The notes: generated from the letters alone by a model not told the origin. 64,000 nt of DNA from Alphaproteobacteria bacterium (GCA_965220745.1 CBDCQT010000006.1:64001-128000); one strand, 5' to 3'; shown: positions 28,401-46,233, numbered from the stretch's first letter. A program made the numbers and translations.

Positions 28401-30739
28401 TGAAGTCGGAGTTGAAGGACCAGGCGACCCAGCCGCTCGTCGACCGTGCGCTGCTCTGGATGCACGAGCAGGAGGTCGTCACTCTCAACCGCGGCCTCAC
28501 CGTGTTTCGTCCGGCGATGACGTTGAAGGTCACGCGAGACGGAAAGACCTTCACGGTCGCGGACTTCAAGCCGCTGAAAGAGCACTACGCCGAGCAGACC
28601 GCACAGATCCACGTCGTCGCCGAGTACGCGAAGCTTGGCGTGGACGACATCCAGCTGGCGCTGCGCCTCGCGGCGGACTACTTCAAGCTCGAAAGCCAAG
28701 AGTTCGTCCACAAGTGGTTCAAGGGCAAGGAGACGACGCTCGGGCGCGACACCCTCCCCGAGCACTATGAGGCGATTGTCAGGAAGCTCGGCAACCGGAC
28801 CCAGGAGCGAATCGTCGCCGACGACCGGGAGCGCACCAACGTGCTGGTGCTCGCGGGCCCGGGCTCAGGCAAGACACGGGTCCTGGTACACCGCATCGCC
28901 TACCTCATCCGCGTGCGGCGCGAGAACCCGGGAAGCATCCTGGCGCTCACCTACAACCGCCACGCGGCGGTCGAGGCGCGGCGGCGTCTCGACGAGTTGG
29001 TCGGGAAGGACGCGCGCGGCCTAAACGTGATGACCTGCCATGCGCTCGCGATGCGGATTCTCGGGATCTCTTTCGCGCAGGCCGCCGCGAATCCGAGCGA
29101 CGAAACGTTCAACCTCATTCTTCGCGACGCCGCCCGGCTCCTGAAGAAGAGCGACGAGGCGAACGCCTTCGTCACCCGGGAGCAGATGCTCGGGCGCCTC
29201 AACTGGATTCTGGTCGACGAGTATCAGGACATCGGCGAGCCCGAGTACGAGCTGATCGCCGCGCTCGCCGGGAAGACCCTCGCCGAGGACGACGCGAGGC
29301 TGAACCTGTTCGCGGTGGGAGACGACGACCAGAACATCTACGCGTGGAAGGGCGCGTCAGTGCGCTTCATCCGCCGCTTCGCCCGCGAATACCACGCGAA
29401 GGAGGAGTATCTCGTCGAGAACTACCGCTCGAGCCGCTGCATTATCGACGCGGCGAGCCAGTGCATCGATGGCGCGGCCGGGCGTCTCAAGCGTGACCAC
29501 AGGCTGCGAATCGACGGCCACCGGCACGCCGAACCGCCGGGAGGGGCCTGGACCGCCCGCGACGAGGTCGCGCGAGGCAAGGTCCAGATTCTGCGCCTCG
29601 AGGGCGGCCAACTCTCGCAGGCCGTGGCCGCGGTCGAGGAACTCAAACGTCTCGCCGCACTCGACCCGGACTGGCAGTGGCGGCGGTGCGCCATCGTAGC
29701 CAGGAACTGGGCCGACCTCGATCCGGCAAGAAGCGCCTGCATGGTCCACGGCATACCGGTGCAGAGCGCGCGCGAGGAGCTTTCCTCGTTCTGGCGCGCT
29801 CGTGAGACGCAGCGGCTTCTACGCACTCTCGACTCGCGCGATTCGACGGCCATCGAAACACAGGAGCTCCGGCGCCATCGCGCGGATGTCGGCGAAGGTC
29901 CGTGGGCCGACCTGCTCGCTCAGGCGCTCGACGAGCTGCTCCTCGAGGAAGGCGAGGCGGCGGTGCTGCCGATCGCATTCGTGCGGAACTGGCTTGGCGA
30001 GTGGAGCAAGGAGATACGGCGCAGGCAGCAGGGGCTGCTCCTGACCAGCGCCCACCGGGCAAAGGGCCTTGAGTTCGATCACGTCGTCATCCTCGACGGA
30101 CGATGGAACGCTACGAGCGATTCGGACGACCCCGATACCGCACGCCGTCTGTACTACGTGTCGATGACCCGCGCCCGCGAGACCCTGGCACTGGTGCGGC
30201 TCGACGATGCCGGGCGCCCGGATGTCCGGGACACGCCGCTTCGGGCAAAGCCGCAGGAACGCGCCTCGTCACTGCTTCAGCCGCTCGGGAACGACCCCTC
30301 GGTGCTGGAGCGCGAGGTTCCGCGTCCGGACATCTCCGACGCACGGTTGGACATCCGGATCGCCGAATGCACCATGAAGGACGTCGTACTGTCTTTCGCT
30401 GGTTGGAGGGCGGCGCATAGCAGGACGCACCGCGCCATCGCCGCACTTGCGCCAGGGGACCCGTTGTCCATGTCGCATGAGCAGGGCCAGTGGAAGATCC
30501 TCGACCGCGAGGGACGCCAAGTCGGCCGCATGGCGAAGAGTTGGACCCTTCCGCACGGCATGGCCATTGTCCGCGCGTCGGTGCAGGGAATCTTCACCCG
30601 CTGGGCCGACGACGGGGAAGACGAAGAACGCAAAGGGACTCTACGCTCGGAGACTTGGGAGGTGGTCGTGCCTCAATTCTTGCTGTCGCGCGAGCTATCT
30701 CCGACGATGGACAAACCCCGCAGCGGCCCTGCCGGTTGA
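25478..30739 (+). CDS. Large RecQ-family helicase fused to an N-terminal DEDD-like exonuclease and a C-terminal UvrD-like SF1 helicase
   Basis: IDVE...GHNII.HD...IDTL; LPTGTGKSLCYQLP, DEAHCLSKWGHDFRPDY, ATNAFGMGIDK, QEAGRAGRDG; LAGPGSGKT, LVDEYQD, VGDDDQNIY, NYRS, HRAKGLEFD, YVSMTRARE. Confidence 0.93.
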   Translation: MAIQRWRDGEGVGKRLAAHGLPGLLSIDVEGTENIGAVGAIRTDRSTVFTWRGRNGRLRTALAALDEFAAGASYLVGHNIIEHDLELLARHAPNLKLLDLPAIDTLYLSPLAFPENPYHRLVKQYQEPALARVQVNDPLLDSELTLELLADVADALRSKDADLLLAWHALLATGVKGHAFDHLFRTIRGTELTPLVEDSIPAIAKRLGARGCPNQAARLARDALSHPLALAYVLAWLPAAGGNSIIPPYVEHRFAPGALATKLRDAHCSNRNCSWCSEHLDAETALKHWFGFSGFREQPRSQDGKSLQRSIVEKHLAREHVLGILPTGTGKSLCYQLPALMRYEATAAITVVISPLVALMADQVAAMRRQRITCATTINGLISMPERAEALAHIRLGDAGIVLVAPEQLRNRSFRRAIAGRRIGAWVVDEAHCLSKWGHDFRPDYRYVARYIAEHHGADSAPILCLTATAKHDVIEDIRQHFEQTLQAQLEVIDGGAERRNLEFVVMPTSASQRIEHIHGAVEDALGRAGSGGAIVYCTTKRSTEETAQALADRGLSAQHFHSGLSPERKREIQRGFHDGEIDVVVATNAFGMGIDKSDVRGVVHSEIPGSLESYLQEAGRAGRDGAPAHCLLLFEPGDAEQQFSLTARSRLERRDIQAVLRAIRRLDSRRRRHHADSGDSVIATAGEILLEDDDGEFARDSATDDDRVRTAIAWLEESKLARRDENHTSVFPSSLRVSNLAAARERIEREGRRRNIRSATRTQMLRVVQTLTHAEPDIGVSTDELMNECGCSMGQLRRVFSTLQEIGVASNDMRITVYVHAGVENASPRRLTLARELEQALIAELREEAPDQDIDTWTRLALRPLAQRLREKDIENPLPERLVRLLRSISGDGRDEPDAKRSIEIRARDMETIGVRLRRNWASIDRIARLRRDGAARLLEHLLGKVPDGVRGVDLLVETTYGALERAIKDDLVLKSELKDQATQPLVDRALLWMHEQEVVTLNRGLTVFRPAMTLKVTRDGKTFTVADFKPLKEHYAEQTAQIHVVAEYAKLGVDDIQLALRLAADYFKLESQEFVHKWFKGKETTLGRDTLPEHYEAIVRKLGNRTQERIVADDRERTNVLVLAGPGSGKTRVLVHRIAYLIRVRRENPGSILALTYNRHAAVEARRRLDELVGKDARGLNVMTCHALAMRILGISFAQAAANPSDETFNLILRDAARLLKKSDEANAFVTREQMLGRLNWILVDEYQDIGEPEYELIAALAGKTLAEDDARLNLFAVGDDDQNIYAWKGASVRFIRRFAREYHAKEEYLVENYRSSRCIIDAASQCIDGAAGRLKRDHRLRIDGHRHAEPPGGAWTARDEVARGKVQILRLEGGQLSQAVAAVEELKRLAALDPDWQWRRCAIVARNWADLDPARSACMVHGIPVQSAREELSSFWRARETQRLLRTLDSRDSTAIETQELRRHRADVGEGPWADLLAQALDELLLEEGEAAVLPIAFVRNWLGEWSKEIRRRQQGLLLTSAHRAKGLEFDHVVILDGRWNATSDSDDPDTARRLYYVSMTRARETLALVRLDDAGRPDVRDTPLRAKPQERASSLLQPLGNDPSVLEREVPRPDISDARLDIRIAECTMKDVVLSFAGWRAAHSRTHRAIAALAPGDPLSMSHEQGQWKILDREGRQVGRMAKSWTLPHGMAIVRASVQGIFTRWADDGEDEERKGTLRSETWEVVVPQFLLSRELSPTMDKPRSGPAG

Positions 30740-30952
30740 GCGCGTCTGTCTGTGCGGGATTTCCGCAAGCCGAGCCCACCCGGCTCTCCCCGCCGTGCCG
30801 CCTACCGGCCAGCCCGCCGCCCGTGCCCCGCCTTCCGTGCAGAACCAGCGCTCGCCCCCTATCATCTGGCGAGGCCACAAAACGACCTCCGCCGCCGGCG
30901 TATGCGCACTGGCGTACAGGACCGCCGCCAGCAGGATCAGAACTTGTCGCAT
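30695..30952 (-). pseudogene. Probable 5' remnant of a secreted-protein gene
   Basis: GGAGG RBS and a clean signal peptide (MRQVLILLAAVLYASAHTPAA), then low-complexity sequence overlapping the helicase 3' end. Confidence 0.35.
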
Positions 30953-31200
30953 GAGTGCCTCCGTGCGTCACGGTACCGGCCCCGTGGAGCCGGGCCGTGG
31001 ATACGCCACGCGAGTTTCTCTGTGTGATGTCCTGCCTGTTCGCCGCGGCCCCGGTAGCTACTCCGTTGCCGAACGCGGCTCTTGTATTCAGCAAGCGACC
31101 CGACACGGGCACTCGCTGGCGTGTCCGCAAGCACAGCAGCACACTTGATCGTGTATGATCAGGACTGGGCGCAACGGGCGAAACACCGAATCGACCGACA

Positions 31201-31223
31201 TTCCCCATCCTATGGATGGGGAA
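31201..31223. repeat. Perfect hairpin TTCCCCATCC-TAT-GGATGGGGAA
   Basis: 10-bp arms with a 3-nt loop, ~60 nt upstream of the small gene at 31285. Confidence 0.6.
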
Positions 31224-31284
31224 ATTTCGGGCGTCCGAAGGCGTGAAGAAAGATGCCGGACAGCGCAAAGGGAAGGCGAAAGCG

Positions 31285-31503
31285 ATGAACGGCAAGGGAA
31301 CGATAATCACGATTATCAGCGTAGGTATCGCCCTGAGCGGCCTGATTCTGAACGGACAGCGCACGACCAACAGGGCGATCGAGAACTTGCGCTCTCAGGT
31401 CAATCGGGACTTCGCCGAGGTCCGCACCAATATCACGGACCTCCGCGAGCGTATGGCCCGGCTGGAGGGCCTGTTCGAAGGCCACTTGGAAAGGGACGAC
31501 TGA
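31285..31503 (+). CDS. Small TM + coiled-coil protein (LRERMARLEG family, copy 2), 72 aa
   Basis: MNGKGTIITIISVGIALSGLIL...ITDLRERMARLEGLFEG; GGGAAGG RBS-like sequence upstream; paralog of 18411-18650. Confidence 0.78.
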   Translation: MNGKGTIITIISVGIALSGLILNGQRTTNRAIENLRSQVNRDFAEVRTNITDLRERMARLEGLFEGHLERDD

Positions 31504-32001
31504 AGGTGCGACCGATGCTAGACCCTGAGAGGGACCTCAAGGGCGCTACGCCTGAGAAGCTGGCCCGCACGCTGTATTGTGGTTGCTAGAGTCGTGATTC
31601 TCGGCTCGCCTACTGTCCGCAGCGCACTGCGAACGAAGCCCTGCGAGTCCGGTTTCTCCGGCTTGCCTCCCACGATCGAACGGTAAGGGGTCGTTTCAAT
31701 GGCCGCCGCCTGCTGAACCAGCCTGTTGCGGGCAGCGGAAACCCTCCGGTCAGCGTTGCTGCGCCAAGTATTTTCGGCAGGCTTGCTCGCTGGCGAACCG
31801 GGTCTCGAATTCCAGCTGATTTCGCGGGTAATCCTCCACCGCCTCAAACACTACATGTAGTAGCTGCCTGACTCAAGTGCATACCCGCATGAGCCCAAGT
31901 CTTGGCGGCAACCGGCACTTTTGGTCGAGCACACCACGAATCGCACCGGCTTGCGTCCGGCTCAGGCGTTATGATGGCGTTGCCTTGCGGGCAGGGAGGG
32001 T

Positions 32002-33921
32002 GTGCCAGTGCAGCAGTTGATCCAGCGATTCCTCAACAAGGAGCTTACGCGGCGAGGTCTTTCTCGAAAGCTGGCCGGACTCGGGCTCTCGGCCGCCGCC
32101 GCGCAATCGCTCATCGAGAGTCTCGATGCCACCGAGAGCGCCAGCCTCGCCTTGCCTCCGTCCAAGCGATCGACGGGAAGCGGCGGGAAGTTGGTCATGG
32201 AGCAGGCTAAAGCCGCAGGATCGGAGTACCTGTTTACGAATCCCGGATCTTTCGAGGTCGGTCTGTTCGACGCGCAGGTCGGTTCCGGCGTGCCGCTGAT
32301 CATGGGCTTGCACGAGGGCATTGTCGTCGCCATGGCGGACGGCTACCACCGTGCCAGCCTCAAGCCGGCCTTCGTCAATGTCCATGTCATCGCAGGCACG
32401 GCCCAAATGGGCGGGCAGCTCTACAACGCCAGCAGGGACGGGGCCGCGTTGGTCGTCACGGCGGGCATGCTGGACAACGAGCTGTGGAGTGACGAGGGCA
32501 TCCTCGCGCCCCGCCCGGGCTATGACCAAAAGGATATCCCCAGACAGTTCACCAAGTTCTGCTGGGAGGCCCGCAACGCGCAGAGCCTGACGATGATGCT
32601 GCGACGGGCCTACAAAGTCGCCACAACTCCGCCGGGCGGTCCGGTGTATCTGGCTATGACCAACGGCGCGCTGGAAACGAAGGACGTCACATCGGAGATC
32701 GTACCGGCGGAGCGCTTCCTGATGTCCGCACGGCCGCGCCCCGAAGCTGCGGCGGTCGACAAGACCGCCGACTGGCTGTTACAGGCAAAGCGGCCGCTGA
32801 TCGTAGTCGGCGACGAGGTCTGGAAGTCCGGCGCCCAGGCGGATTTGGTCAGCTTTGCGGACAAGTACAACGTCCCCGTTACGTCCGGGACAGGAGGCTA
32901 TTTCAACTTCCCGGCTCGCCACCCGCTCCACCTCGGCCGCTTCAGCATGCGCTCGGACTATGCGCAGGGCGGCGTCGATCTTGCCCTGATGGTCGGTGCC
33001 CGCGACTTCGGCATCTGGCGCTTGCCGACCGGCCCGGAAGCCCCGATGGACGCCCGAATCGTGCGGATCGGCCTGAACGCGGGGAACATGGGCCGCAACT
33101 ACCCGACCGATCTCGCGCTGCTCGCGGACGTGAAGGCGTCTTTGGCGGATCTCGATGCGGCGCTGGAGGGCCGGATCCCTCAGCAGCGCCTCAGCGCGTT
33201 CGGGCGAGACCGCGGGGATCAAGCGCGCGGCCTGTCGGCGCAGATGTGGAACGATTTCGACAGCCGGGTGCGCGGCAACTTCGGCCTGAGCCCCATGCAT
33301 CCGGATGAGATGACATACGTCATGGCCAAGACGCTGGACCGCAACGCCGTGGTCGTGGGCGAGGTGCATTCCGGCTACAACCAGCACAACAACTTCCACT
33401 GGGGCTACGGCGACGACGAGCAGATCTGGATCGGCTACACGGGCAATTCGCTCGGCTGGGGTCTCGGCGCGGCCACGGGCGCCAAGCTGGCCCTTCCAGA
33501 CCGGCAAGTCGTGTGCTCGATCGGCGACGGGGCGGTCATGTACCAGTCCAGCGCTTTCTGGTCGCAGGCGCGCTACGGAGTGCCTGTCCTGACCGTGGTT
33601 TGGAACAACCTCAACTACCAGACGGTGCGAGGCGGATTTCACCGCTACGGCGGCACGATGGCGGCGACCGGAAAATACACCGGCATGTATTTGGGCGCTC
33701 CAGACATTGACTTCGTGCAGCTTGCGGCGAGCCAAGGAGTCAAGGGCGAGCGGGCGACGACACCTGCCGAGCTGGCAGCGGCACTCAAGCGCGGCATGGA
33801 GGTGTGCGGGGCCGGCGAGCCCTATATGGTGGAGGCCATGATCCGCCGAATCGGACCAGGGGCGGACTCGACTTGGCACGAGGGCTTCAAGCTGAGCGAG
33901 CGCATGAAGGCGACGGGCTAG
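32002..33921 (+). CDS. Thiamine pyrophosphate-dependent enzyme (benzoylformate decarboxylase/acetolactate synthase family) with a twin-arginine-like N-terminus
   Basis: GGAGG plus GTG start; FTNPGSFE, LHEGIVVAMADGY (catalytic Glu), GDG...NN TPP-binding motif. Confidence 0.92.
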   Translation: MPVQQLIQRFLNKELTRRGLSRKLAGLGLSAAAAQSLIESLDATESASLALPPSKRSTGSGGKLVMEQAKAAGSEYLFTNPGSFEVGLFDAQVGSGVPLIMGLHEGIVVAMADGYHRASLKPAFVNVHVIAGTAQMGGQLYNASRDGAALVVTAGMLDNELWSDEGILAPRPGYDQKDIPRQFTKFCWEARNAQSLTMMLRRAYKVATTPPGGPVYLAMTNGALETKDVTSEIVPAERFLMSARPRPEAAAVDKTADWLLQAKRPLIVVGDEVWKSGAQADLVSFADKYNVPVTSGTGGYFNFPARHPLHLGRFSMRSDYAQGGVDLALMVGARDFGIWRLPTGPEAPMDARIVRIGLNAGNMGRNYPTDLALLADVKASLADLDAALEGRIPQQRLSAFGRDRGDQARGLSAQMWNDFDSRVRGNFGLSPMHPDEMTYVMAKTLDRNAVVVGEVHSGYNQHNNFHWGYGDDEQIWIGYTGNSLGWGLGAATGAKLALPDRQVVCSIGDGAVMYQSSAFWSQARYGVPVLTVVWNNLNYQTVRGGFHRYGGTMAATGKYTGMYLGAPDIDFVQLAASQGVKGERATTPAELAAALKRGMEVCGAGEPYMVEAMIRRIGPGADSTWHEGFKLSERMKATG

Positions 33922-34111
33922 CGAGGCGCAGACCAACATAAAAGGTGTCGAGGTCCCGAATCCTGATTCAAGCGCCTACGGAGCATCTATAGCGAAACCG
34001 GCCATTGCGGGCCTGTTAAGGGGTTCAAGGGAATGAGCCGACGCGCAATCCAGCGCCAATCCCCAGCCTCGTGGCGGGCGGATGGAATCGCCGGGTGTCT
34101 CGGACTGGCAA

Positions 34112-35008
34112 TTAGCGGTCGCGCTCGGCTGGAGCGGTATCGGCCGTGAGGGCGCGGAGTTGCTCCTCCAGTGCCCGCACTCGCTCGTCCGCTGCGCTTG
34201 CCTCCTGCTTCGCCGCAATCGCCTCCTGCTTCGCCGCGCTTGTTTCCTGCTCTGCGGCGCTCGCCCGCTCCTCTGCGGCGCTCGCCCGCTGCTTGGCTGC
34301 AATTACCTCCTGCTTTGCTGCCCGCGAATCACGCTCCGCGATCCGCCTCCGCCGCTCGGCTTCTTCCAGCGCGCCGTCGGTCTCTTCCCCGGTGCGCGGA
34401 TCCCGGAACACCAGCACCGTCGCCCGGGCCTGCCTTTGGCTGCGCAGTTCCAGCCCCAGCACCTGGCTCCGGTACCGCCGCTCCCGGTCGCTGCTCGCCA
34501 CTGGCTGCACCGGGTCATACTTCCCCCCGCTGGCCTCGTAGCCCTCCAACGCTGACCCCATCAAGGTCCCGTCCGGGTCCAGCCGCCAGTACTCCCGAAC
34601 ACCTATCCGGGCGTACTCCCGCGCCTTGTGCTCGGCGTCATTCTCCGCCGTCGACGGCGACGCCACCTCCAGCACGAAATCCGGGGCTTTGCCTTCCTCC
34701 CAGATCCGGTACGAACTGCGATTCTCAGGGCTCACCCCGAACACCACCTGCACGTCCGGCTGGAGCCAGAGATTGTTATCGTCACGCCGGTAGTACACCG
34801 CCAGTTCCATGGCCACCAGCACGTCCGTGCGCTCCCGGAAGTGGTTTCGCAAGGCCGCCGAGGCTTGCAAGACAGCATCGCCGTGCGCGATGCTCTGCGC
34901 GATCCAATTGCGTTCCGGGTAATCGACTTCGTCCAGCTTCGCAGAGGCGTCGGCAATGGCGGTGGCCCGCCCGGCAAGTTCGGTGTCTGTAGCCGTCGTG
35001 AAGGGCAT
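34112..35008 (-). CDS. Uma2-family endonuclease (copy 1) with coiled-coil tail
   Basis: QPDVQVVFGV, PDFVLEVASPST, HKAREYARIGVREYWRLDP. Confidence 0.93.
   Translation of the reverse strand: MPFTTATDTELAGRATAIADASAKLDEVDYPERNWIAQSIAHGDAVLQASAALRNHFRERTDVLVAMELAVYYRRDDNNLWLQPDVQVVFGVSPENRSSYRIWEEGKAPDFVLEVASPSTAENDAEHKAREYARIGVREYWRLDPDGTLMGSALEGYEASGGKYDPVQPVASSDRERRYRSQVLGLELRSQRQARATVLVFRDPRTGEETDGALEEAERRRRIAERDSRAAKQEVIAAKQRASAAEERASAAEQETSAAKQEAIAAKQEASAADERVRALEEQLRALTADTAPAERDR
34180..34326 (-). repeat. 21-nt (heptad) tandem repeats in the Uma2 copy 1 tail
   Basis: RAAKQEV IAAKQRA SAAEERA SAAEQET SAAKQEA IAAKQEA SAADERV. Confidence 0.8.
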
Positions 35009-35796
35009 CTTGCAACGAGCGGCGTGCGAATGCGCCGCCTTGGGTTGATCCTAGCACCGTGCCAGAGCTCGTCCCCCGACCCGTCGCTGTCGTGACGCGA
35101 GCTTGATTGCCCGCGCTGCTCGCGCTTAGAGCGACGCGGTGCTCAGCTTGCGACAGAGGTCTCGCCGGCGCGCCCCCTGTGCGCCTAGCTCAGCCTGCAA
35201 CCATACGCGGCGCGAGTGGATCTGCGCTCTGGAGGCATGTGCAAGCAAGCGTGCTTGCGCTGGTTTGTGCGCGCGGCTCCACTGAGCGAACGGCGGTGCT
35301 TGGGGGAGCCAGACGGCGGCCCCTGCAGGCCAACTTGGGCGGCTCTCCGGGCACCGGGTCGGGAGCGGAAGTCGACATGCCGGCCAAGGGAGGGTGTTGC
35401 GGGGGTTGGCCGCGGGCCACCGCCCGCAGTTGTGCCTGCATTCCCCCTACGCCGACGTGCTGAGCCCGCCCCTAGCGGTCCGATTCGAGCACAGCGAGGC
35501 ACTTTGTGGCGGGCGATGCAGCACTTCGATCGGGAGATCGAACGCCCCTGGGAAGGCGAGCCAATCCCACCGTAAACTTGACTCGCTTGTAAACGCTACG
35601 CCTAGCGAGGCAAGCCTCAGACCAACAAGGAAAGACGTGGAATCATCGGAATCCGACGTTGATCATCAACGCCATGGTCACGAGATTTGTGGGTTGCGGG
35701 TCCAGGTGGGAGGGTAAGGGTACGAGCCGAGGCACATTGAGGCACGGAGCCTCATCCCCCGATAGGTGGACGATTTTGCGGGACGGTCCCTCGACT

Positions 35797-36648
35797 CTAG
35801 GGGTCGCGTTCCGGCGGAGAGCCATGGGCCGTCAGAGCCCGGAGTCGCTCCTCCAGTGCCCGCGCTCTCTCCTCCGCTGCGGTGACTCGCTGCTGTAATG
35901 TCTGCTTCTCGCGCACTGCTGCTTGCTTTTCACGCACTGCTACTTGCTTTTCACGCACTGCTGCTTGCTTGTCGCGCTCCGCGATCCGCCGCTGCCGCTC
36001 GGCTCCTTCCAGCCTGCCATCGAACTCCTCGCCCGTGCGAGGGTCAGTGAACACCAGGACCGTCACCCCGGCCTGCCTCCGGCTGCGCAGCTCCAGCCCC
36101 AGCACGCGGCTCCGCAACGCACCGCTCCGGCCCGCGCCCTCGACCGGCTGCACCTGCTCGTACTGCTCCGCGCTGGCCACGTAGCCCTCCAGGGAAGTCT
36201 CCATCAAGGTCCCGGCCGGATCCAGCCGCCAGTGCTCGCGCACGCCTATCCTGGCGTATTCCCGCGCCTTGTGCTCGGCATCGTTCTCCGCCGTCGACGG
36301 CGACGCCACCTCCAGCACGAAGTCCGGCGCCTTGCCTTCTTCCCAGATTCGGAACGAACCGCGACTGCCGCAGTGCTCCACCCCGAACACCACTTGCACA
36401 TCCGGCTGCAGTCGAAGCTTGCTGTTGCCGCGCTGGTAGTACACGACCAGCTCCATGGCCACCAGCACGTCCGCACGCTCACGGAAGTAGTAGTCCAGGG
36501 CCGTGGCGGCCTGCCGCACGGCGTCCCCGTGCCCCACGCTCTGGGCGATCCAATGCCCTTCCGGGTACTCGACCTCGTCGGGCTCCGGCGCCACTGCGGG
36601 GGCGCCGGGCGATGTCAGTGCGGGAAGTTCTGTCTGCGTGGTAGCCAT
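35797..36648 (-). CDS. Uma2-family endonuclease (copy 2)
   Basis: Same motifs. ATG 36648 aligns with the starts of copies 1 and 3; TATAAT at 36694-36699 (minus strand). Confidence 0.92.
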   Translation of the reverse strand: MATTQTELPALTSPGAPAVAPEPDEVEYPEGHWIAQSVGHGDAVRQAATALDYYFRERADVLVAMELVVYYQRGNSKLRLQPDVQVVFGVEHCGSRGSFRIWEEGKAPDFVLEVASPSTAENDAEHKAREYARIGVREHWRLDPAGTLMETSLEGYVASAEQYEQVQPVEGAGRSGALRSRVLGLELRSRRQAGVTVLVFTDPRTGEEFDGRLEGAERQRRIAERDKQAAVREKQVAVREKQAAVREKQTLQQRVTAAEERARALEERLRALTAHGSPPERDP

Positions 36649-37119
36649 CGTCGCCCTGCAGTATGCAAATGCGCGTGAACGCCAATGCTCTTGATTATAG
36701 AGCCGCCGTAGTAGGCCGGGACCGCCCAGCAAGTGACAGGATGGTGTTGCCGGCAATGGTCGGCCTCGCCCGGACGCGGGCGGCGCCAGCGGCACCGAGA
36801 CCTGCAGCAACAGTCCACGTTGCAGGGCAGCAAGGGGTCTAGCCACGCTTCGCCTCAACCGGGCGAGAGCGGCACTTCGGCGTCGAGACTTGACCTAATC
36901 GTCAGCCTTACGCCGAGACAAGGCGTCTAGCGAGGCGCGCCTCAGACCAACGAGCCGCTGAGATCCCGGATCCTAACTCACGCGCCTACGCAGCATCGAT
37001 AGCGAGACCGGCGATCGCGGGTCTGATCGAGAGTTCAAGGAACGAGTCGACGCGTAATCCAGCGCCAATCCACAGATCGTGGCCGGCGGATGGTATCGCC
37101 GAGTGCCTTGGCATGCCAG

Positions 37120-37974
37120 CTAGCGGTCGCGCTGCCCTGGAGTGGTACGGGTCGTGAGGGCGCGCAGTTGCTCCTCCAGTGCTCGCACTCGCTCGTCCGC
37201 CACGCTTGCCGCCTGCTTCGCCGCGCTTGCCTCCTGCTGTGCTGCGTTCGCCCGCTCCTCCGCCGCGTTCGCCCGCTGATTGGCTGCCCGCGAATCTCGC
37301 TCCGCGATCCGCCTCCGCCGCTCGGCTTCTTCCAGCGCGCCGTCGGTCTCTTCACCCGTGCGCGGGTCCCGCAACACCAGTACCGTCCCGCGAGCCTGCC
37401 TCCGGCTGCGCAGTTCCAACCCCAACACCCGGCTCCGATGCCACTGACCCGCATTGCTGCTCGCCACCGGCTGCACCGGGTCATACTTCCCCCCGCCGGC
37501 CTCGTAGCCCTCTAACGACGACCCCATCAAGGTTCCATCCGGGTCCAGCCGCCAGTATTCCCGGACCCCGATCCTGACGTACTCCCGCGCCTTGTGCTCG
37601 GCGTCATTCTTCGCCGTCGACGGCGACGCCACCTCCAGCACGAAATCCGGGGCTTTGCCTTCCTCCCAGATCCGGTACGAACTGCGGTTCTCAGGGCTCA
37701 CCCCGAACACCACCTGCACGTCTGGTTGCAGCCAGAGATTGTTGTCCTCTCGCCGGTAGTACACCGCCAATTCCATGGCCACCAGCACGTCCGTGCGCTC
37801 CCGGAAGTGGTTCCGCAAGGCTGCCGTCGCCTGCAACACAGCATCGCCGTGCGCGATGCTCTGAGCGATCCAATTCCGTTCCGGGTATTCGACCTCGTCC
37901 GGCTTCGCAGATGCCTCGGCAGCGGCTGTGGCCCGCCCGGAAAGTGCGGTGTCCTTGGCGGTCGTGAAGGGCAT
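37120..37974 (-). CDS. Uma2-family endonuclease (copy 3)
   Basis: Close paralog of copy 1, two heptads shorter. Confidence 0.93.
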   Translation of the reverse strand: MPFTTAKDTALSGRATAAAEASAKPDEVEYPERNWIAQSIAHGDAVLQATAALRNHFRERTDVLVAMELAVYYRREDNNLWLQPDVQVVFGVSPENRSSYRIWEEGKAPDFVLEVASPSTAKNDAEHKAREYVRIGVREYWRLDPDGTLMGSSLEGYEAGGGKYDPVQPVASSNAGQWHRSRVLGLELRSRRQARGTVLVLRDPRTGEETDGALEEAERRRRIAERDSRAANQRANAAEERANAAQQEASAAKQAASVADERVRALEEQLRALTTRTTPGQRDR

Positions 37975-38275
37975 GTCGCAACGGGTAGCGCACGAACGCG
38001 CCGCCTAGAGATGATGCTAGCACCGTGCCACTGCGGTCTGAGCGGGGCGCCCGCTGTGCCGCGAACTCAGCCTGTCACCACACACGACTTGGCATGCCTG
38101 CTAGGCCCGCCTGCTGAGCCCGTCCGTAGCGTTCCGGCGCGAGTGCGGCAACGCCCCTTGCAGCGGGCGCTGCAACACTTCGCTCGGAAGATCGAGCGCC
38201 TCTGAGAAGGCGAGTCAATCTCACCGGAAACTTGACTCGCTTGTAAACGCTACGCTTAGACAAGGAATCTAGCGC

Positions 38276-38316
38276 GCCCACAGCTTCGGCGGAGCGAAGC
38301 CGGGTTTCCGGTGGGC
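38276..38316. terminator. GC-rich hairpin downstream of the sulfatase gene, possible terminator
   Basis: GCCCAC...GTGGGC outer stem with an inner GCTTCG/CGAAGC stem; no clear U-tract. Confidence 0.35.
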
Positions 38317-38327
38317 CGGGCCGTGCG

Positions 38328-39782
38328 CTAGTACCGCGAGACGCGGTTGGGCCCGACATCCGTCGCTGTGGCCAGCGCGTCGAAATTCATAACCATGTGA
38401 TCGTGACGCACCTGCGCTAGGCGCGGGTCGTCCCAGAGATTGTCAAACTCGCCCGGATCGGCTTCTAGGTCGAAGAGCTCGCCCAAGCCGTGACCGTGGT
38501 AGGTGACCTGCTTGAAGCGCTCGCTGCGCACCATCGTGCCGAAGCTCTGCACTCCCGCCAAGGCGCGGTAGTACTCGCTGCGCACGAACTCTCGGTGATG
38601 TCCGGGTGCTGCCTTGCCTTCCAGCACGGAAGCCAGCGACTTGCCGTGCATCGTGCTCGGCACGCTGAGCCCGGCCGCCTCCAGCAGCGTCGGAGCGAGA
38701 TCCGTCAGTTCCACCAGCGCTTCGCTGCGCAGCCCTTGCCGGAAACGCCCCGGCCACGAAATCACGAGCGGGACGTGCACCAAGCTCTCGTAGAAGCGGC
38801 AGCCCTTCAGCAAGAGGCCGTGATCTCCGAGCGTCTCGCCGTGGTCGCTGGTGAAGATGACCATCGTGTTGGCCAGTTGGCCGCTGTCCTGCAAGGCGTC
38901 CAGCATTCTGCCAACGTTGTGATCGATCAGTTCGATCATGGCGAAGTATTTCGCTTGGTACGACCTTGCGTTGAAGTCCTCCGGCCGCCGCGCCGGTGTC
39001 TGGAAGTTGACAGCCTCGAGCCGTTGCTGGGCCTCCAGATCCGACTCGCGGAACAGCGGGCCGGGCATGTCCGCTGCAGGGTAGTGCTCCAGCCACTCCT
39101 GTGGCGGGTCGAACGGCGAGTGCGGGTCGAAGCAGTTCAGGCTGAACAGCCAAGGCCCGGAGCGCTCTTCGCGCATGAAGTCGATGGCTCGGTCGGCGCA
39201 CCAGGTAGTTTGGTGAAACTCGCTGGGAATGTAGCCGAGCCGCCCGTAAATCGAATCGTAGTCCTTGCCCAGCGAGCGCAGCCACTCGATATAGGCGTGC
39301 CCCTCGGGCCAGTCGTCGCTGGGATGATGGCTCCAGTCAAACACTCGGTATCCGTCATCAACGCGCGGCTCGATCCGGCCTTGTGCGCCGGAGAGGTGAA
39401 ACTTGCCGGCCAGGGCGCAGTCGTATCCGGCGTCAGCGAGCGACTTGGTGACCAAGGGCGCTGCGTCGTCCCAGGTCTCGTTCCCGTTCATGCAGCCATG
39501 CACCGCAGATGGATACATGCCGGTCAGGAAGCTCGCCCGGCTGGGCGTGCAGATCGGAGATTGGCAATATGCGTTCTCGAACGCGACGCCGCTCGCGACC
39601 AAGCGGTCGATTTGCGGAGTGCGGACGTGCCCGTTTCCGAGAGAGCGGATCGTGTCCCAGCGCTGTTGGTCGGTGCATATCCAAAGGATGTTGGGGCGGC
39701 TGTCTGCGGAACGGGCCTTGGGGCTGGCCAAGGCGGCCCCGCTGGCGCCCAGAAAGCCCCTTCTGGTGACGGTGGAACCCAT
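38328..39782 (-). CDS. Sulfatase (formylglycine-dependent), Tat-exported
   Basis: TRRGFLG signal, PNILWICTDQQR, CTPSRASFLTG, GKFH, PH, FTSDHG, ELFDLEADPGE. Confidence 0.95.
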   Translation of the reverse strand: MGSTVTRRGFLGASGAALASPKARSADSRPNILWICTDQQRWDTIRSLGNGHVRTPQIDRLVASGVAFENAYCQSPICTPSRASFLTGMYPSAVHGCMNGNETWDDAAPLVTKSLADAGYDCALAGKFHLSGAQGRIEPRVDDGYRVFDWSHHPSDDWPEGHAYIEWLRSLGKDYDSIYGRLGYIPSEFHQTTWCADRAIDFMREERSGPWLFSLNCFDPHSPFDPPQEWLEHYPAADMPGPLFRESDLEAQQRLEAVNFQTPARRPEDFNARSYQAKYFAMIELIDHNVGRMLDALQDSGQLANTMVIFTSDHGETLGDHGLLLKGCRFYESLVHVPLVISWPGRFRQGLRSEALVELTDLAPTLLEAAGLSVPSTMHGKSLASVLEGKAAPGHHREFVRSEYYRALAGVQSFGTMVRSERFKQVTYHGHGLGELFDLEADPGEFDNLWDDPRLAQVRHDHMVMNFDALATATDVGPNRVSRY

Positions 39783-39875
39783 AGTGCCCGAAATTAAGGC
39801 ATTAGAGGCGCGCCAAGCGGCAACTGGCTGGCAAGCACAGAGCGCAGTCAGAAGATCAGTGGTAAAATCCCGAAC

Positions 39876-42800
39876 ATGATGAGCGTCTTCAATAAGCCAT
39901 GTCAGTGTGTAGTTTGGATTCGCGCTGGAATACTGTTTCTATCGACACTCTTTCTGGCACCGGTCTTGTTCGGGCAATCGAGCGGTCTGAGCGGAGTGGT
40001 CACTGACGAGACCGGCGGCGTTATCCCTGGCGCAGAGATCGACATCATGAACGAAGCCAATGGCTTCCAGCGTTCAGTGGAGTCCAACGAAGAGGGGAAC
40101 TACACGTTCGCCCAGTTGCCGCCAGGGTCGTATACCCTATCGGCGGTCCAAGAGGGTTTCGCGCCGGTGATTATCGAGGGTGTTTCGCTGCTGGTCAACA
40201 CCAACGTGACCCTCCCGGTCGTCTTCGGCACCGTCGAGGCGGTCGAGGAAGCGGTCACGGTTTCCGCCTCTGCGGCGCAGCTGAACACGACTGACGCTTC
40301 GGTCGGGAACGCCTTCGGCACAAAGCCGATCGTGCAGCTCCCGCTGAACGCCCGCAACCCGGCGGGATTGCTCTCGCTGCAGGCAGGCGTCACCTTCCTG
40401 AGCGCCGATCCGCTGGATTCGAAAAAGGTGGGCGACATCCGAAACGGCACCGTGAACGGCGCTCGTAGCGACCAGTCGAACGTGACGCTTGATGGCGTCG
40501 ATGTGAACGACCAGAACGGGCGCCTGCCCTTCACCAGCGTGCTGCGCAACACCTTGGACTCGATCCAGGAATTCCGGGTCGTCACAACCACCGCGAACGC
40601 AGATCAGGGTCGGTCAGCGGGCGCGCAGGTCGCATTGGTAACCCGCAGCGGGACCAATGAGGTCCACGGCTCGTTATACGAATTCCACCGCAACACAGCT
40701 ACCGCGGCCAACGACTTCTTCAACAACAGCGCGGGCGTCGACCGGGCGAAGCTGATCCGCAACGTTTTCGGGGCCTCCATTGGCGGTCCAATCAAGCAAA
40801 GCCGCCTGTTCTACTTCGCCAACTACGAAGGCCGCAGGGACGCTAGCGAGGGCGGCGTGGTGCGCACGGTGCCCAGCGACTCCCTGCGCCAAGGCTTCGT
40901 CAAGTACAGGGGAGTCGGGGGAGCGGTGCAGGAACTCGACCCGGCATTTATCCAGTCCCAGATCGATCCTCTGAAAATGGGTCCCAGCCCGGCCGCGCTC
41001 CAGTACTTCAGTGACTTCCCGGCCCCGAACGACTCCACCGTCGGCGACGGGCTGAACACTTCCGGCTACAGGTTCACCGCATCGACCCCGCTGGTCTGGA
41101 ACACAGTCATTTCGAAGGTGGATTGGAACGCCGACGAGAACGGGGCCCACCGCATCTTCGTGCGCGGCAATTTTCAGCACGATCACATCGGGGGCTTGCC
41201 CCAGTTTCCTGGCCAGGACCCGAACAGGGAAACCGATGACAGGAGCCGCGGCTTGGCAATTGGGTACACCGGGTTGATCGGACCGGGCATCGTCAGCAAC
41301 TTCCGCTACGGTTTCACGGGCCAAGATGTGATGCTGTCCGGAGTCCAGAACGAGTCCCGGGTGAGATTGGGGGACAGCCTCTTCGATGACTCCTTCGGCA
41401 GCACGACGCCGGAGTCGAACTACCTGCCGGTGCATACTGTGGCCGAAGATATCTCGATTGTGCGCGGCCAGCACTCTTGGCAATTCGGCGGAGTCTTCCG
41501 ATCCATCCGCAACCGCCGCATGAACTCCAGCAACAGCTTTCACTTCGCCAAGCAGGCCGCGTGGGCATTGACGGACGGCCCGGCCTTGTTCGACACGCCA
41601 CTCGCCGTCGCCCCCGCGAACCCGGGGACCTACCGCGAGACCATGGCAACGGTGCTTGGCCTGGTCAACTTCTACGACGCGAACTACAACTACGACATCC
41701 AGGGCAATCCGCTAGCGGCGGGAGACCCGGTCAGCCGCACGTTCGGCATGGAAGAGCTGGAGCTGTACTTCCAGGACACTTGGCGCGCCAAGCCGGGTTT
41801 GACAATCACGGCGGGACTGCGCTGGTCGTTCATGCCGCCCGTGAGAGAAGTCAACGGGGTGCAGGTCCGCATCACCCCGAGGCTGGACAACTACATCGCG
41901 ACCCGCGTGGACCTGGCCGAGAGCGGCCGGCCTACCCATGAGGCGGGACCCATCGGTTTCGTGGGGATCGACGACCCCAACGGCGGACCGCTGTGGGCGA
42001 CGCACTCGAGGAACTTCTCGCCGCGGCTCGCCGTCGCGTTCTCGCCGCAGGCTCGCGACGGTTTTCTGGGCAAGCTTTTCGGCGGTCCCGGCAAGACATC
42101 GATCCGGGCGGGCGCGGGGCTGTTCTACGACATTTTCGGCATGGGCATGATCCAGATGCTCGACCGCAACGCGTTCGGCCTGACGAGCAGGGTGACTACC
42201 CAGAACTTCACGGTTTCGAACTCGCCCCGCTTCGAAGGGCAGACGAATATTCCCTCCCGCGGGATCGCGCCGCCGCCGCCAGGCGGCCCCGGCACGCCCA
42301 ACCCCATGGGACTGGCTTGGAGCCAGGGCGTCGATTCGAGCGTGCTGCCGCCGTACAGCATCAACCCCACCGTGACCGTTTCCCGCGAGCTCGGAGGCGG
42401 CTTCATGATGGAGGTTGGCTATATCGGAAGGCTCAGCCGCAGGCAGCTGATCAACGACACTGCCGTTGCCCAGTACACCAACTTCAAGGATCCGGCATCC
42501 GGCCAGTACCTGCTTGACGCCCTCCAAGAGCTCGAGCTGATGGCGCGCGGCGGCTGGTCGACCCGGTCCGTGCCGACGGTCGCGTTCTTCGAAAACCAGT
42601 TTTCCGCTTCTGCGACGCGGGACTTTACCGCGACCCAGCGAGTGTACGACGTCATCAGATCGAACAGCCCCGACACCGGTACCGCGATGTACTACCTAGA
42701 CTACGCCTGCGCCCCTGTCTGCAGCGACGCGGGTCCGGGCCTTTCGATGAATCCGCAGTTCTGGGGCTTCGACGCGTTGCGATCCTACGGGACGGCGACC

Positions 42801-43610
42801 TACCACTCGATGCAGGTTTCGCTGCGCAAGGGATTCAGCAAAGGGTACCAGTTTGACCTGAACTACACCCTGTCCGAATCCACGGACTTGACCTCGGTTG
42901 GCACGCGACGCAGCCAGGGAGAGCGGTTCGGCCAGATCCCGGGCGACACCTACTGGTCCGCGTTCGGTGTCATCAACTCCTGGGACAGAGAGGCGCAGCG
43001 GGCATTCTCGGATTTCGACATGCGCCACCAGTTCAATGCGAACTGGGTCGTGGAACTGCCCTTCGGGCGCGGCAAACCGTACCTGGCGGACATGGGGCCG
43101 GCCGGGCAGGCAGTGCTTGGCGGCTGGCAGGTCAGCGGCTTGGGGCGCTACACGTCGGGCATGCCACTCAGCATCCTGAACGGTCTGGCCTGGCCGACCT
43201 GTTACTGCTACCAGCACTTCGCCGAGCCGATCGGGCCGATACCGGCACAGACCAACACGGCCAGCGCGGCGCTGATCGGAGGCGGCACGGGACCGAACGT
43301 GTTCAGCAACCCGGCCGCCGCTCTGTCGTCGTTCCGGCAGGTCGTGGTCGGCGGAATCGGGCAGCGGAACAACCTGCGCGGCCACGGGATCTTCTCGATT
43401 GACATGGCTGTCGGAAAACGCTTCCAGCTGCCCATGGAAGGGCACAGCCTGCAATTCCGGGCCGAGGCGTTCAATCTGACGAACAGCGTGCGCTTCAACG
43501 CAGACGCTTGGGAGACGCTGTCCTATACCTTCACCGGGAGCTTCGGAAACTACTCTAGGGTGCTGATTCCGCCCAGGGTCCTGCAATTCGGATTGCGGTA
43601 CGAGTTCTAG
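39876..43610 (+). CDS. TonB-dependent receptor, Oar-like / acidobacterial type with carboxypeptidase-regulatory N-domain
   Basis: Signal peptide, GVVTDETGGVIPGA, LPLNARN, LDGVD, RSGTNEVHGSLYEFHRN, FRAEAFN, C-terminal PRVLQFGLRYEF. Confidence 0.95.
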   Translation: MMSVFNKPCQCVVWIRAGILFLSTLFLAPVLFGQSSGLSGVVTDETGGVIPGAEIDIMNEANGFQRSVESNEEGNYTFAQLPPGSYTLSAVQEGFAPVIIEGVSLLVNTNVTLPVVFGTVEAVEEAVTVSASAAQLNTTDASVGNAFGTKPIVQLPLNARNPAGLLSLQAGVTFLSADPLDSKKVGDIRNGTVNGARSDQSNVTLDGVDVNDQNGRLPFTSVLRNTLDSIQEFRVVTTTANADQGRSAGAQVALVTRSGTNEVHGSLYEFHRNTATAANDFFNNSAGVDRAKLIRNVFGASIGGPIKQSRLFYFANYEGRRDASEGGVVRTVPSDSLRQGFVKYRGVGGAVQELDPAFIQSQIDPLKMGPSPAALQYFSDFPAPNDSTVGDGLNTSGYRFTASTPLVWNTVISKVDWNADENGAHRIFVRGNFQHDHIGGLPQFPGQDPNRETDDRSRGLAIGYTGLIGPGIVSNFRYGFTGQDVMLSGVQNESRVRLGDSLFDDSFGSTTPESNYLPVHTVAEDISIVRGQHSWQFGGVFRSIRNRRMNSSNSFHFAKQAAWALTDGPALFDTPLAVAPANPGTYRETMATVLGLVNFYDANYNYDIQGNPLAAGDPVSRTFGMEELELYFQDTWRAKPGLTITAGLRWSFMPPVREVNGVQVRITPRLDNYIATRVDLAESGRPTHEAGPIGFVGIDDPNGGPLWATHSRNFSPRLAVAFSPQARDGFLGKLFGGPGKTSIRAGAGLFYDIFGMGMIQMLDRNAFGLTSRVTTQNFTVSNSPRFEGQTNIPSRGIAPPPPGGPGTPNPMGLAWSQGVDSSVLPPYSINPTVTVSRELGGGFMMEVGYIGRLSRRQLINDTAVAQYTNFKDPASGQYLLDALQELELMARGGWSTRSVPTVAFFENQFSASATRDFTATQRVYDVIRSNSPDTGTAMYYLDYACAPVCSDAGPGLSMNPQFWGFDALRSYGTATYHSMQVSLRKGFSKGYQFDLNYTLSESTDLTSVGTRRSQGERFGQIPGDTYWSAFGVINSWDREAQRAFSDFDMRHQFNANWVVELPFGRGKPYLADMGPAGQAVLGGWQVSGLGRYTSGMPLSILNGLAWPTCYCYQHFAEPIGPIPAQTNTASAALIGGGTGPNVFSNPAAALSSFRQVVVGGIGQRNNLRGHGIFSIDMAVGKRFQLPMEGHSLQFRAEAFNLTNSVRFNADAWETLSYTFTGSFGNYSRVLIPPRVLQFGLRYEF

Positions 43611-45756: not shown

Positions 45757-46233
45757 CTAGGCTCGGGCGTTCCGTGTGGCACCCGGGGCAGCCTTCCATA
45801 AGCGCTAGCTTCTGAATCCCCGCTTAAGCTGCGGATCGGCAAAGGCAGGCTGATTTCGGGGCCGAATGCGAGCGGACGATGAACTTTCGGCAGTTGAAGG
45901 GCCAACTTTCCATGGCGGGCCGCGGCTGTAGCCTGCCGCTAGATGGTGCCGGAAGCGGGAATGGGATTCCGCGGCGCACGATTCGCACTCAGGAGCTGCT
46001 AGCGGGCCAGAGTCAGAGTGATACGCTGCGCCGCCAATTTGGGGTACGCCGGTAAACTCCTGATGCCGCCGATAGCGCGTGTACGAAGCACAGGCACCAC
46101 GGACGAAACTCAGTGCCTATGAATAGCCGCGGTCGATGCCGCGATCCTGCCGCCATAGGACAGGAAGCAATCATTGCGAAGATCGAAAGCAGCTATCGGA
46201 TGCCAATTCTGCTTCGTCGGTTCACTGTCGCCG

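Follow-up and report, generated by a model that had tools for sequence, protein, structure and literature searches.

We describe an array of three genes of the Uma2 nuclease family (PF05685) in a stretch of 64,000 nucleotides (nt) of DNA assigned to an Alphaproteobacteria bacterium (GCA_965220745.1 CBDCQT010000006.1:64001-128000; hereafter the window, which is C6:64001-128000 of the binned genome G000). At 33918-38272 of the window, the minus strand carries three units in head-to-tail order, each with a single Uma2 gene and each bounded by the tetranucleotide CTAG. The best explanation of this arrangement, which we hold with about even confidence, would be that the array consists of three independent insertions from one small mobile element family that apparently has not been described so far. 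Members of this family range from gene-less elements of ~90-165 nt to cassettes of 1.3-1.7 kb, and the cassettes contain a single gene, which has its own promoter and encodes a Uma2 PD-(D/E)xK nuclease with a long coiled coil at the C-terminus. The parts of this explanation carry different weight. It is very likely that these are discrete elements that duplicate CTAG, occupy many sites and have spread recently, and it is likely that they were stacked through repeated insertion. That Uma2 itself is the mobility enzyme is a possibility which we rate somewhat below even. All the evidence is comparative, and most of the genomes compared are metagenome-assembled genomes (MAGs).

The array sits between the gene of a thiamine pyrophosphate (TPP) enzyme and a convergent sulfatase gene. 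Its four CTAGs, at 33918, 35602, 36927 and 38269, each have CG directly 3' of them and delimit units of 1680, 1321 and 1338 nt. The features of the locus are as follows, where L denotes related loci, G genomes and X sequencing runs.

32002-33921, plus strand: TPP enzyme host gene (Pfam TPP_enzyme_N/M/C), with its stop TAG at 33919-33921 within the left boundary CTAG
33918-33921, no strand: boundary CTAG 1, between host flank and unit 1 3' end
33922-35601, minus strand: unit 1, 1680 nt, ortholog of the lone unit of L019
34112-35008, minus strand: Uma2 gene of unit 1, 298 amino acids, stop TAA (PF05685 E=4.3e-20, 72.3 bits)
35602-35605, no strand: boundary CTAG 2, between units 1 and 2, bridged by X1 and X6 contigs
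35606-36926, minus strand: unit 2, 1321 nt, of a different cassette clade and sister to L040
35797-36648, minus strand: Uma2 gene of unit 2, 283 amino acids from ATG (PF05685 E=9e-18, 64.8 bits)
36694-36699, minus strand: TATAAT box of unit 2, ~46 nt upstream of the start codon, present in 8 of 9 unit-2-type copies
36843-36926, minus strand: first 5' module of unit 2, 84 nt between the CTAGs at 36839 and 36927
36927-36930, no strand: boundary CTAG 3, between units 2 and 3, bridged by an X6 contig
36931-38268, minus strand: unit 3, 1338 nt, sister to L028
37120-37974, minus strand: Uma2 gene of unit 3, 284 amino acids (PF05685 E=6e-20, 71.9 bits)
38269-38272, no strand: boundary CTAG 4, between unit 3 5' end and host flank, bridged by X4 and X6 contigs
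38328-39782, minus strand: sulfatase host gene (Pfam Sulfatase E=1.4e-47), with orthologs in L019 and L071

The three Uma2 proteins all exceed the curated PF05685 cut-off of 27 bits, and the stops of the Uma2 genes of units 2 and 3 fall within CTAGs (35797-35800 and 37120-37123, respectively). The units can be aligned over their whole length; in long blocks, the identity between units 1 and 3 is 83-88%, whereas unit 2 is 66-85% identical to the other two. The number of synonymous substitutions per site (dS) is 0.28 between units 1 and 3, in comparison with 0.61 and 0.76 between unit 2 and the other two. An earlier description of this locus, made by a model from the DNA alone (the sequence-only reading), had proposed three diverged units with one Uma2 gene each, units 1 and 3 being mutually closest, and this agrees with the PF05685 matches, the CTAG spacing and the dS values. 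The end motifs that it reported are as described, the identity of 28 nt between 35574-35601 and 38228-38255 is exact, and the unit alignment bears out that the second arm of a mini-hairpin is missing in unit 1.

The same genomic site was found in three states of occupancy. The locus L071, which lies on a complete chromosome and aligns to window 31946-33921 (91%) and 38327-39830 (88%), has an empty site, in which the TPP gene ortholog finishes in a lone CTAG that is followed by 59 nt and then by the sulfatase gene. L019, which aligns at 95-96% to 30556-35605 and 38092-43613, has one unit, the ortholog of unit 1, with CTAG on either side, and the window has three. These zero-unit and one-unit alleles support the earlier expectation that empty sites exist in relatives and that removal of the array leaves one CTAG, the TPP gene stop, near the sulfatase gene. 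The flank past the right-hand CTAG reads CTAGTG in L019 and L071, with C instead of T in the window. Since these orthologous right flanks read CTAGTG, the core is CTAG and not the CTAGCG of the sequence-only reading, even though all four boundaries do read CTAGCG; the CG at boundaries 1-3 represents the first bases of the element itself, and the CG at boundary 4 is flank DNA and a coincidence. Unit 1 would have been inserted first, because it is common to a relative (L019), and units 2 and 3 later. Two CTAGs stand 13 nt apart at the 5' end of the unit in L019, and unit 1 is without its first 13 nt because unit 2 abuts the inner CTAG. Besides, X1 and X6 contigs have an insertion of 13 nt behind 36913, within the terminal portion of the unit 2 5' end, that repeats the 13 nt before it; 13 nt is also the distance between the two CTAGs in L019.

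Two other cassette sites were compared between genomes. At the L029 site, a deletion remnant is left in G045, in which 39 nt of the 5' end are retained, and the divergence of G043 is too great for comparison. At the L021 site, G041 and G045 are without the cassette; the cassette copy has a clean CTAG at its 3' junction but is truncated at its 5' end, and 620 nt of host DNA are missing. In the alignment of L021:5900-7091 with G041:C1:5821767-5822398, the truncated cassette stands in place of the ~620 nt and the host-side break falls exactly at a CTAG of the host. This deletion next to the cassette may have been made by the same machinery.

To define the termini of the elements, the related loci were searched with two profiles, one for the initial 89-90 nt and one for the final 89 nt. 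In the Uma2 sense, the 5' end starts with CTAGACTCCTTGTCT and the 3' end terminates in GGTCTGAGGCGCGCCTCGCTAG. CTAG stands at the start of 22 of 29 complete 5' termini (18 of 22 distinct flank contexts) and at the end of 22 of 27 complete 3' termini (18 of 21 contexts). The other termini (CTCG, CTTG, CCAG, TTAG and CTGG) are all one-base variants of it, and the homology between copies ends at the terminal tetramers. With a CTAG background of 1.46 per kb in the related loci and 1.31 per kb in the contig, the four CTAG boundaries are not due to chance. No flank preference beyond CTAG is visible when the flanks of the termini are read by eye.

The two ends are unlike each other and have only a short direct motif in common. 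A scan for terminal inverted repeats gave no pair between the two termini of the mini-element L138 and none among the 25 longest of 67 inverted pairs listed for unit 3, in line with the claim that the ends are not inverted repeats; in the L101 region, the sole inverted pair is internal. RNAalifold, applied to 20 copies per end, yielded no supported consensus structure: the consensus energies were -0.03 and -4.43 kcal/mol, and double changes occurred in 1 and 2 pairs. A 5-bp mini-hairpin lies beside the 3' CTAG in most copies, not all, and no Rfam match at E<=1 was obtained in 33500-38700.

CTAG is also found within the cassettes. Among genes with 54% or more identity to units 1-3, the Uma2 stop is overlapped by CTAG in 33 of 60, against a background of 61 of 368 long open frames of the same loci (spurious frames included). 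The CTAG at the Uma2 stop delimits a 3' module of ~195 nt bounded by two CTAGs, like the mini-element at the 5' end, and the unit 2 module at 36843-36926 is itself such a mini-element by size and layout (9 unit-2-type copies aligned). The cassettes could thus be composites that arose from repeated insertion at regenerated CTAGs and then moved as a whole. Among the matches listed at 36-42% identity, which are mostly from other phyla, CTAG at the stop was seen in none but a second gene of two orthologous Bryobacterales loci, which is 37% identical. The generality of the arrangement beyond this acidobacterial clade looks poor.

The contig that holds the array is probably mis-binned and would belong to a Bryobacterales-like acidobacterium. 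Its flanks match MAG records named 'Bryobacterales bacterium' at 88-96%, and among 40 relatives of G000 neither a Uma2 homolog (E<=1e-10) nor an ortholog of the TPP gene was found (top match 34% identical). The bin has only six Uma2 matches, three on C6 and three at the start of contig C4. Both of these contigs, probably mis-binned alike, deviate in composition, with tetranucleotide correlations to the six largest contigs of 0.966 (C6) and 0.962 (C4) vs at least 0.995 in 28 equal-sized control pieces, and with CTAG densities of 1.31 and 1.23 per kb vs 0.30-0.47 in seven large and 0.14-0.26 in four small contigs. The sole further contig with matches, C12, resembles loci of Gammaproteobacteria MAGs. 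The sequence-only reading had taken confinement of the end motifs to this locus as a result that would speak against mobility. Within G000 the motifs indeed seem confined to it, because the contig appears to be foreign to the bin; among the true relatives, the ends recur.

Both conserved ends are found in Bryobacterales-like genomes, and there at many unrelated sites, as had been expected of a mobile element. In five carrier genomes, the 5' end was found at 21, 16, 1, 20 and 21 places (total 79) and the 3' end at 9, 7, 0, 6 and 11 places (total 33), and these genomes have 31, 37, 25, 19 and 29 Uma2 matches (total 141). A same-strand Uma2 domain match follows 119-635 nt downstream of 56 of the 79 5'-end places, and 21 of the 33 3'-end places have one upstream, 339-492 nt away; these short distances leave no room for a second gene. 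Seen from the genes, 51 of the 141 have the 5' end upstream. Across the order, the 5' end was detected in 13 of 101 genomes with 1-19 copies each. Uma2 is present in 12 of these 13 genomes in comparison with 77 of all 101, so that this co-occurrence is uninformative. Adjacency counts for G099, G102, G104, G115 and G133 were made by eye.

Copies within one genome point to recent movement. Inside the cassette, L024 and L034 have 95.4% identity and L062 and L033 have 96.3%, whereas their flanks are 46% and 37-41% identical, respectively. Some elements have no gene at all. Thirteen of the 23 Uma2-less 5'-end places were fetched and comprised five mini-elements (L101, L102, L104, L107 and L108; ~90-165 nt, gene-less, both ends present), three ends beyond a distant Uma2 neighbour and five fragments. 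The L101 mini-element has CTAG on either side in G044, and its site is empty in G041, where the flanks are adjacent and CCCG stands at the position of the CTAG of G044 (stretch 73-75% identical). G115 and G133 have 19 and 11 places, respectively, and 12 of the 16 that were fetched have 84-87 nt between the tetramers; CTAG is present at both ends in 7 of those 12, and in 8 of the 16 when read by eye, counts that include two pairs with common flanks and thus not independent.

The relationships of the three units also point to insertions from elsewhere. Unit 1 is 91.7% identical to L019 over 1689 nt (79-99% per 100-nt window, with 94-99% in 13 of 17). Unit 2 is 93.2% identical to L040 over the full 1331 nt, and unit 3 is 94.8% identical to L028 over 911 nt (98-100% per 100-nt window without gaps); L040 and L028 are at other sites in other genomes, with flanks unrelated to those of the window. 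In a quick maximum-likelihood tree of 47 proteins, from which 19 of 66 gene segments had been dropped (internal stop or <230 amino acids), the same pairs are joined with values in the Shimodaira-Hasegawa-like approximate likelihood ratio test (SH-aLRT) of 100 (unit 3 and L028), 97 (unit 2 and L040) and 94 (unit 1 and L019), and unit 2 is in a clade separate from units 1 and 3. Since the dS between unit 3 and L028 (0.012) is below that of the orthologous pair of unit 1 and L019 (0.108), the unit-3 type moved or was exchanged after the divergence of the genomes. Considering that the tree joins each unit to a copy of another genome, that empty and one-unit alleles exist and that the ends occur at many unrelated sites, the earlier claim of independent insertions at a regenerated core is upheld, and so is its argument from phylogeny against a local duplication.

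Across 42 Uma2 sequences, no variation was seen at D85, D110 and E114, and conservation is at least 90% at E68 and K128; these residues would correspond to the catalytic motif of PD-(D/E)xK enzymes. The ratio of nonsynonymous to synonymous substitution rates (dN/dS) is 0.17-0.39 in nine Uma2 pairs (0.17 for unit 1 vs L019), and that of unit 3 vs L028 is 0.51, at a dS of 0.012 only; these values indicate that Uma2 is under purifying selection. A structure model with a predicted local distance difference test value (pLDDT) of 74.9 has a nuclease core at residues 34-205 and a single C-terminal helix of 76 residues, and the best matches in a fold search were the DUF820 structures 9y1l, 6okh, 1wdj and 3ot2, all uncharacterised. 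A symmetric homodimer model scored 0.45 vs 0.00 for the best control, with runs that agree in at least 86% of contacts and a partner pLDDT of at least 79. Among solved structures, 20 of 30 pairs reach the mark of 0.45, as does 1 of 23 single chains, and the pass may in part be owed to DUF820 entries already solved with two chains. A dimer as modelled would suit a palindromic target. The C-terminal helix consists of 7-residue repeats encoded by 21-nt DNA repeats (34200-34330 and 37190-37290), and the lengths of close Uma2 homologs differ by multiples of 7 amino acids (263, 270, ... 319), so that the repeat number varies.

For the upstream region of these genes, the sequence-only reading had claimed an own -10 box per unit. 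A sigma-70 promoter scan of the array gave no promoter-like site, which does not support the claim, and the terminator scan gave 3 terminator-like sites vs 2.0 expected. On the other hand, the proposed positions coincide with a TGn-TAnnnT box, which lies ~45 nt before the start and recurs in most Uma2 subfamilies among the matches listed at 54% identity or more. The 5' regions of unit-2-type copies differ by 1-nt and 4-nt indels and were thus taken as non-coding. Unit 1 has ~330 nt extra between the 5' end and the promoter in comparison with unit 3 (window 35100-35440), and L019 has extra sequence at the same position. Long 5' regions were also seen in L034 and L070, in which the 5' end lies 521 nt before the start; this distance is 610 nt in L019. 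Contigs of the RNA library X19 cover parts of units 1 and 2 (33867-34065, 34788-35031, 35616-35818 and 36258-36632), and such a library may contain DNA.

Based on these data, we propose a scheme for the movement of the elements. Insertion would take place into the palindrome CTAG and would leave CTAG on either side. Because each insertion regenerates CTAG at both borders, later copies would be able to land beside earlier ones, which would give rise to both the head-to-tail stack and the CTAG-bounded modules within cassettes. A dimer or higher oligomer of Uma2 might bind the two unlike ends and cut both the flanking CTAGs and the target CTAG with a stagger of 4 nt, and host ligation or repair would rejoin the pieces. 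In favour of Uma2 as the enzyme, its gene is the sole one seen between the ends; the purifying selection, the invariant acidic residues, the modelled nuclease core and the homodimer model speak for it as well. More tentative than a role of Uma2 in mobility as such is our suggestion that these proteins could be the enzymes of a new transposable class that moves by 'restriction-and-ligation' transposition, with no DDE, HUH, serine or tyrosine enzyme.

Several observations weigh against this explanation. The 5' end is missing from 90 of the 141 Uma2 genes of the five carrier genomes and occurs in 13 of 101 genomes while Uma2 occurs in 77, and in G062, which bears the end, no Uma2 match was obtained at E<=1e-10; the earlier suggestion that such cassettes explain the expansions of the family thus fits the 51 genes with the 5' end and not the wider distribution. 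None of the mini-elements of G115 (0/19) and G133 (0/11) has a Uma2 gene within 20 kb. A Uma2 subfamily of G043 is found in units with inverted-repeat ends that are partly common to a transposase-bearing insertion sequence (IS), which indicates that Uma2 can be cargo. These genomes show no avoidance of CTAG (976 observed vs 1158 expected under a Markov model), so that Uma2 is not an unrestrained CTAG cutter, and no result obtained here shows CTAG cutting or DNA movement by Uma2. Besides, one fully clean empty site only was found per kind, for the cassette (L071) and for the mini-element (L101), and the two further cassette sites gave a deletion remnant and a cassette with an adjacent deletion.

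These points lead to the alternative that the elements are mobile and non-autonomous, moved by an unlinked transposase, site-specific recombinase or non-Y1 HUH enzyme with Uma2 as a passenger, which we consider possible, if tentatively so. As a passenger, the nuclease could serve in addiction or defence, or it could act in retention or homing by cutting the CTAG site again once this has been emptied, like TnpB in IS200/IS605. The multiplication of mini-elements with no adjacent Uma2 in G115 and G133, the inverted-repeat units of G043 and the 90 genes that do not have these ends are all in agreement with an unlinked enzyme. So is a DDE IS in the window (43611-45756) that also duplicates CTAG, which shows that CTAG targeting is not unique to Uma2. 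However, we found no candidate for such an enzyme (no search for PF04986-type Y2 HUH enzymes was made), none of the copies examined has a second gene, and no non-Uma2 cargo was seen at the 13 of 23 gene-less 5'-end sites that were fetched (the small open reading frames of L103 and L106 being outside the family search). The ends also have neither the inverted repeats used by DDE enzymes nor a supported hairpin as needed by attC or IS200-type ends. Y1 HUH (PF01797) has matches in three of the five carrier genomes and no match in G041 and G044, both copy-rich. Of the mobilisers proposed in the sequence-only reading (Uma2 itself, or a recombinase or HUH enzyme in trans), Y1 HUH is thus disfavoured, and Uma2 would be the best candidate.

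The two IS-related systems have features of their own. At four loci (L030, L037, L052 and L058), the G043 subfamily forms near-identical units of 1.7-1.9 kb, which end in 17-bp imperfect inverted repeats (CACAGTTCCGGTCATGG) and are flanked by repeats of 5-6 bp. Their left part of 300-390 nt is found 19 times in G043, and other copies of it run into a gene with helix-turn-helix (HTH) and Transposase_29 domains; the right repeat of the parent IS was not found within 4 kb of L137. The window IS is 2146 bp long, with 18-bp terminal inverted repeats (CCTGAATTCCCAACAGAG), a duplicated CTAG (43607-45760) and a transposase gene at 43943-45715 (590 amino acids, DDE_Tnp_1). L019 has the empty site for this IS at the stop of an outer-membrane protein gene (39876-43610), and a further copy lies inside the 3' module of the Uma2 cassette of L023. 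As a mobiliser of the cassettes, the window IS was rejected, since its termini have no terminal bases in common with the cassette ends.

It is very improbable that the array was built in place by tandem duplication via the CTAG repeat, with the copies then changed by divergence or gene conversion. A duplication of this kind, between short direct repeats, yields n units and n+1 repeat copies, as observed, all three units have the same orientation, and Uma2 arrays exist elsewhere, on contig C4 of G000 and in G102. This origin is contradicted by the unit relationships and by the empty site: every unit is nearer to a copy in another genome than to its array neighbours, with the closest copies of units 2 and 3 at different sites outside the array, unit 2 belongs to another clade with a dS of 0.61-0.76 to its neighbours, and a zero-unit allele exists, yet the model requires at least one ancestral unit. 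The same ends, moreover, bound solitary copies at 20 further 5' and 18 further 3' distinct sites.

An assembly artefact, in which the assembler merged or strung together reads of a multi-copy repeat family to give a chimeric metagenome contig, would be in keeping with the origin of the window from a metagenome bin, the apparent mis-binning and the raised summed contig depth over the Uma2 core in the runs examined, and is nevertheless the least probable of all, extremely so, since contigs of other runs bridge each of the four junctions (one run may be the source sample) and the units, at 66-88% mutual identity, are different enough for separate assembly. The junction between the TPP gene and unit 1 is bridged by contigs of X1, X4 and X6, unit 1-unit 2 by X1 and X6, unit 2-unit 3 by X6, and unit 3-sulfatase by X4 and X6. 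These are DNA runs from three studies, of which one may be the source sample and would thus not be independent support. No contig that joins the TPP gene directly to the sulfatase gene or skips a whole unit was found in four runs, which is uninformative on excision since contigs drop rare variants, and circle junctions are indistinguishable from array junctions within an array.

The insertion elements proposed here resemble several known systems in part. Like DDE IS (IS5-like, e.g., the window IS) and their miniature inverted-repeat transposable elements (MITEs), they have a CTAG target, a 4-bp duplication, many dispersed copies and gene-less miniatures, and insertions often lie at gene ends. 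Unlike these, the Uma2 elements have no terminal inverted repeats and no DDE gene or other known transposase or recombinase gene, and DDE enzymes require inverted ends. The IS200/IS605 group with its TnpB-only and palindrome-associated transposable element (PATE) derivatives is similar in its small size, asymmetric non-inverted ends and gene-less short derivatives, in that most copies have a nuclease gene only and not a classical transposase, and in a tetranucleotide at both borders that can be read as target and cleavage site. It differs in that the Y1 enzyme TnpA was not found in two of the five carrier genomes, and in that Uma2 is a PD-(D/E)xK nuclease and not a RuvC-like TnpB, with no sign of a guide RNA and no Rfam match in the array region.

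Integron cassettes are likewise single-gene, stacked head to tail in one orientation, and have a short core that is regenerated at each junction. In contrast to integron cassettes, which mostly have no promoter, each Uma2 unit has a conserved promoter box and no attC-like structure, most Uma2 copies are solitary and dispersed, and the neighbours of the array are the TPP enzyme and sulfatase genes and not an integrase (genomes not searched for intI). Free-standing homing endonuclease genes have in common with the cassettes a selfish single nuclease gene with its own promoter between host genes. Homing, however, is a copying into the same locus through flank homology, whereas the cassettes occur in 22 distinct 5' and 21 distinct 3' flank contexts with flank identities of 37-46% within genomes, and homing leaves the gene-less mini-elements unexplained.

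TnsA of Tn7 and Rpn/YhgA, proteins with links to recombination or transposition, have the same nuclease fold as Uma2, which is a separate Pfam family. TnsA acts with a DDE partner in an element that has inverted-repeat ends. The Rpn/YhgA proteins are PD-(D/E)xK 'putative transposases', and we know of no defined Rpn element with ends and target duplication. With respect to IS91/ISCR/Helitron-like rolling-circle elements, which have a Y2 HUH or Rep-helicase gene and distinct ori and ter ends and make no duplication, a whole mini-element with a distant second 3' end would fit read-through past the first terminus.

Other Uma2 arrays differ from the one in the window. The second array of G000 (C4:1-5400) has three Uma2 genes of another subfamily, ~41% identical to the window genes, in units of ~920 bp that are not CTAG-bounded in the way of the window array; one unit is set apart by an IS-like insert with 9-bp direct repeat flanks. 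G102 has 68 Uma2 matches, with runs of at least 11 adjacent same-strand genes (C5:5406420-5417492 and C5:2471466-2487185), and none of its four 5'-end matches adjoins these long arrays.

Uma2/DUF820 is a large family, for which comparisons of Thermus-Deinococcus and of Thermosynechococcus note expansions (PMC1274311, PMC9403480); in the passages of these papers that concern the family, the expansions are treated as unexplained, and one of the two states the function of Uma2 as unknown. Rpn genes, like Uma2 genes, are noted in the relevant passage of PMC9403480 to expand and form arrays in some cyanobacteria. We found no such element described in the titles and abstracts listed for Uma2, DUF820 or CTAG duplication, with subscription journals and supplements outside the scope of the search.

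Overall, these results give the Uma2 family a defined genetic context, with ends, a 4-bp target, empty and filled sites, miniatures and recent copies. The cassettes and mini-elements also disrupt metagenome assemblies, as several of the related loci terminate inside them. If Uma2 is not the enzyme, there is still a new element family that is free of inverted repeats, with a recurring nuclease cargo to explain. If Uma2 is the enzyme, this would represent a new mode of moving DNA and a compact CTAG-directed insertion system, and it would provide a function for a large orphan family and an account of its expansions, at least in Acidobacteriota. The array described here may thus help to account for the multiplication of Uma2 genes in some bacteria.

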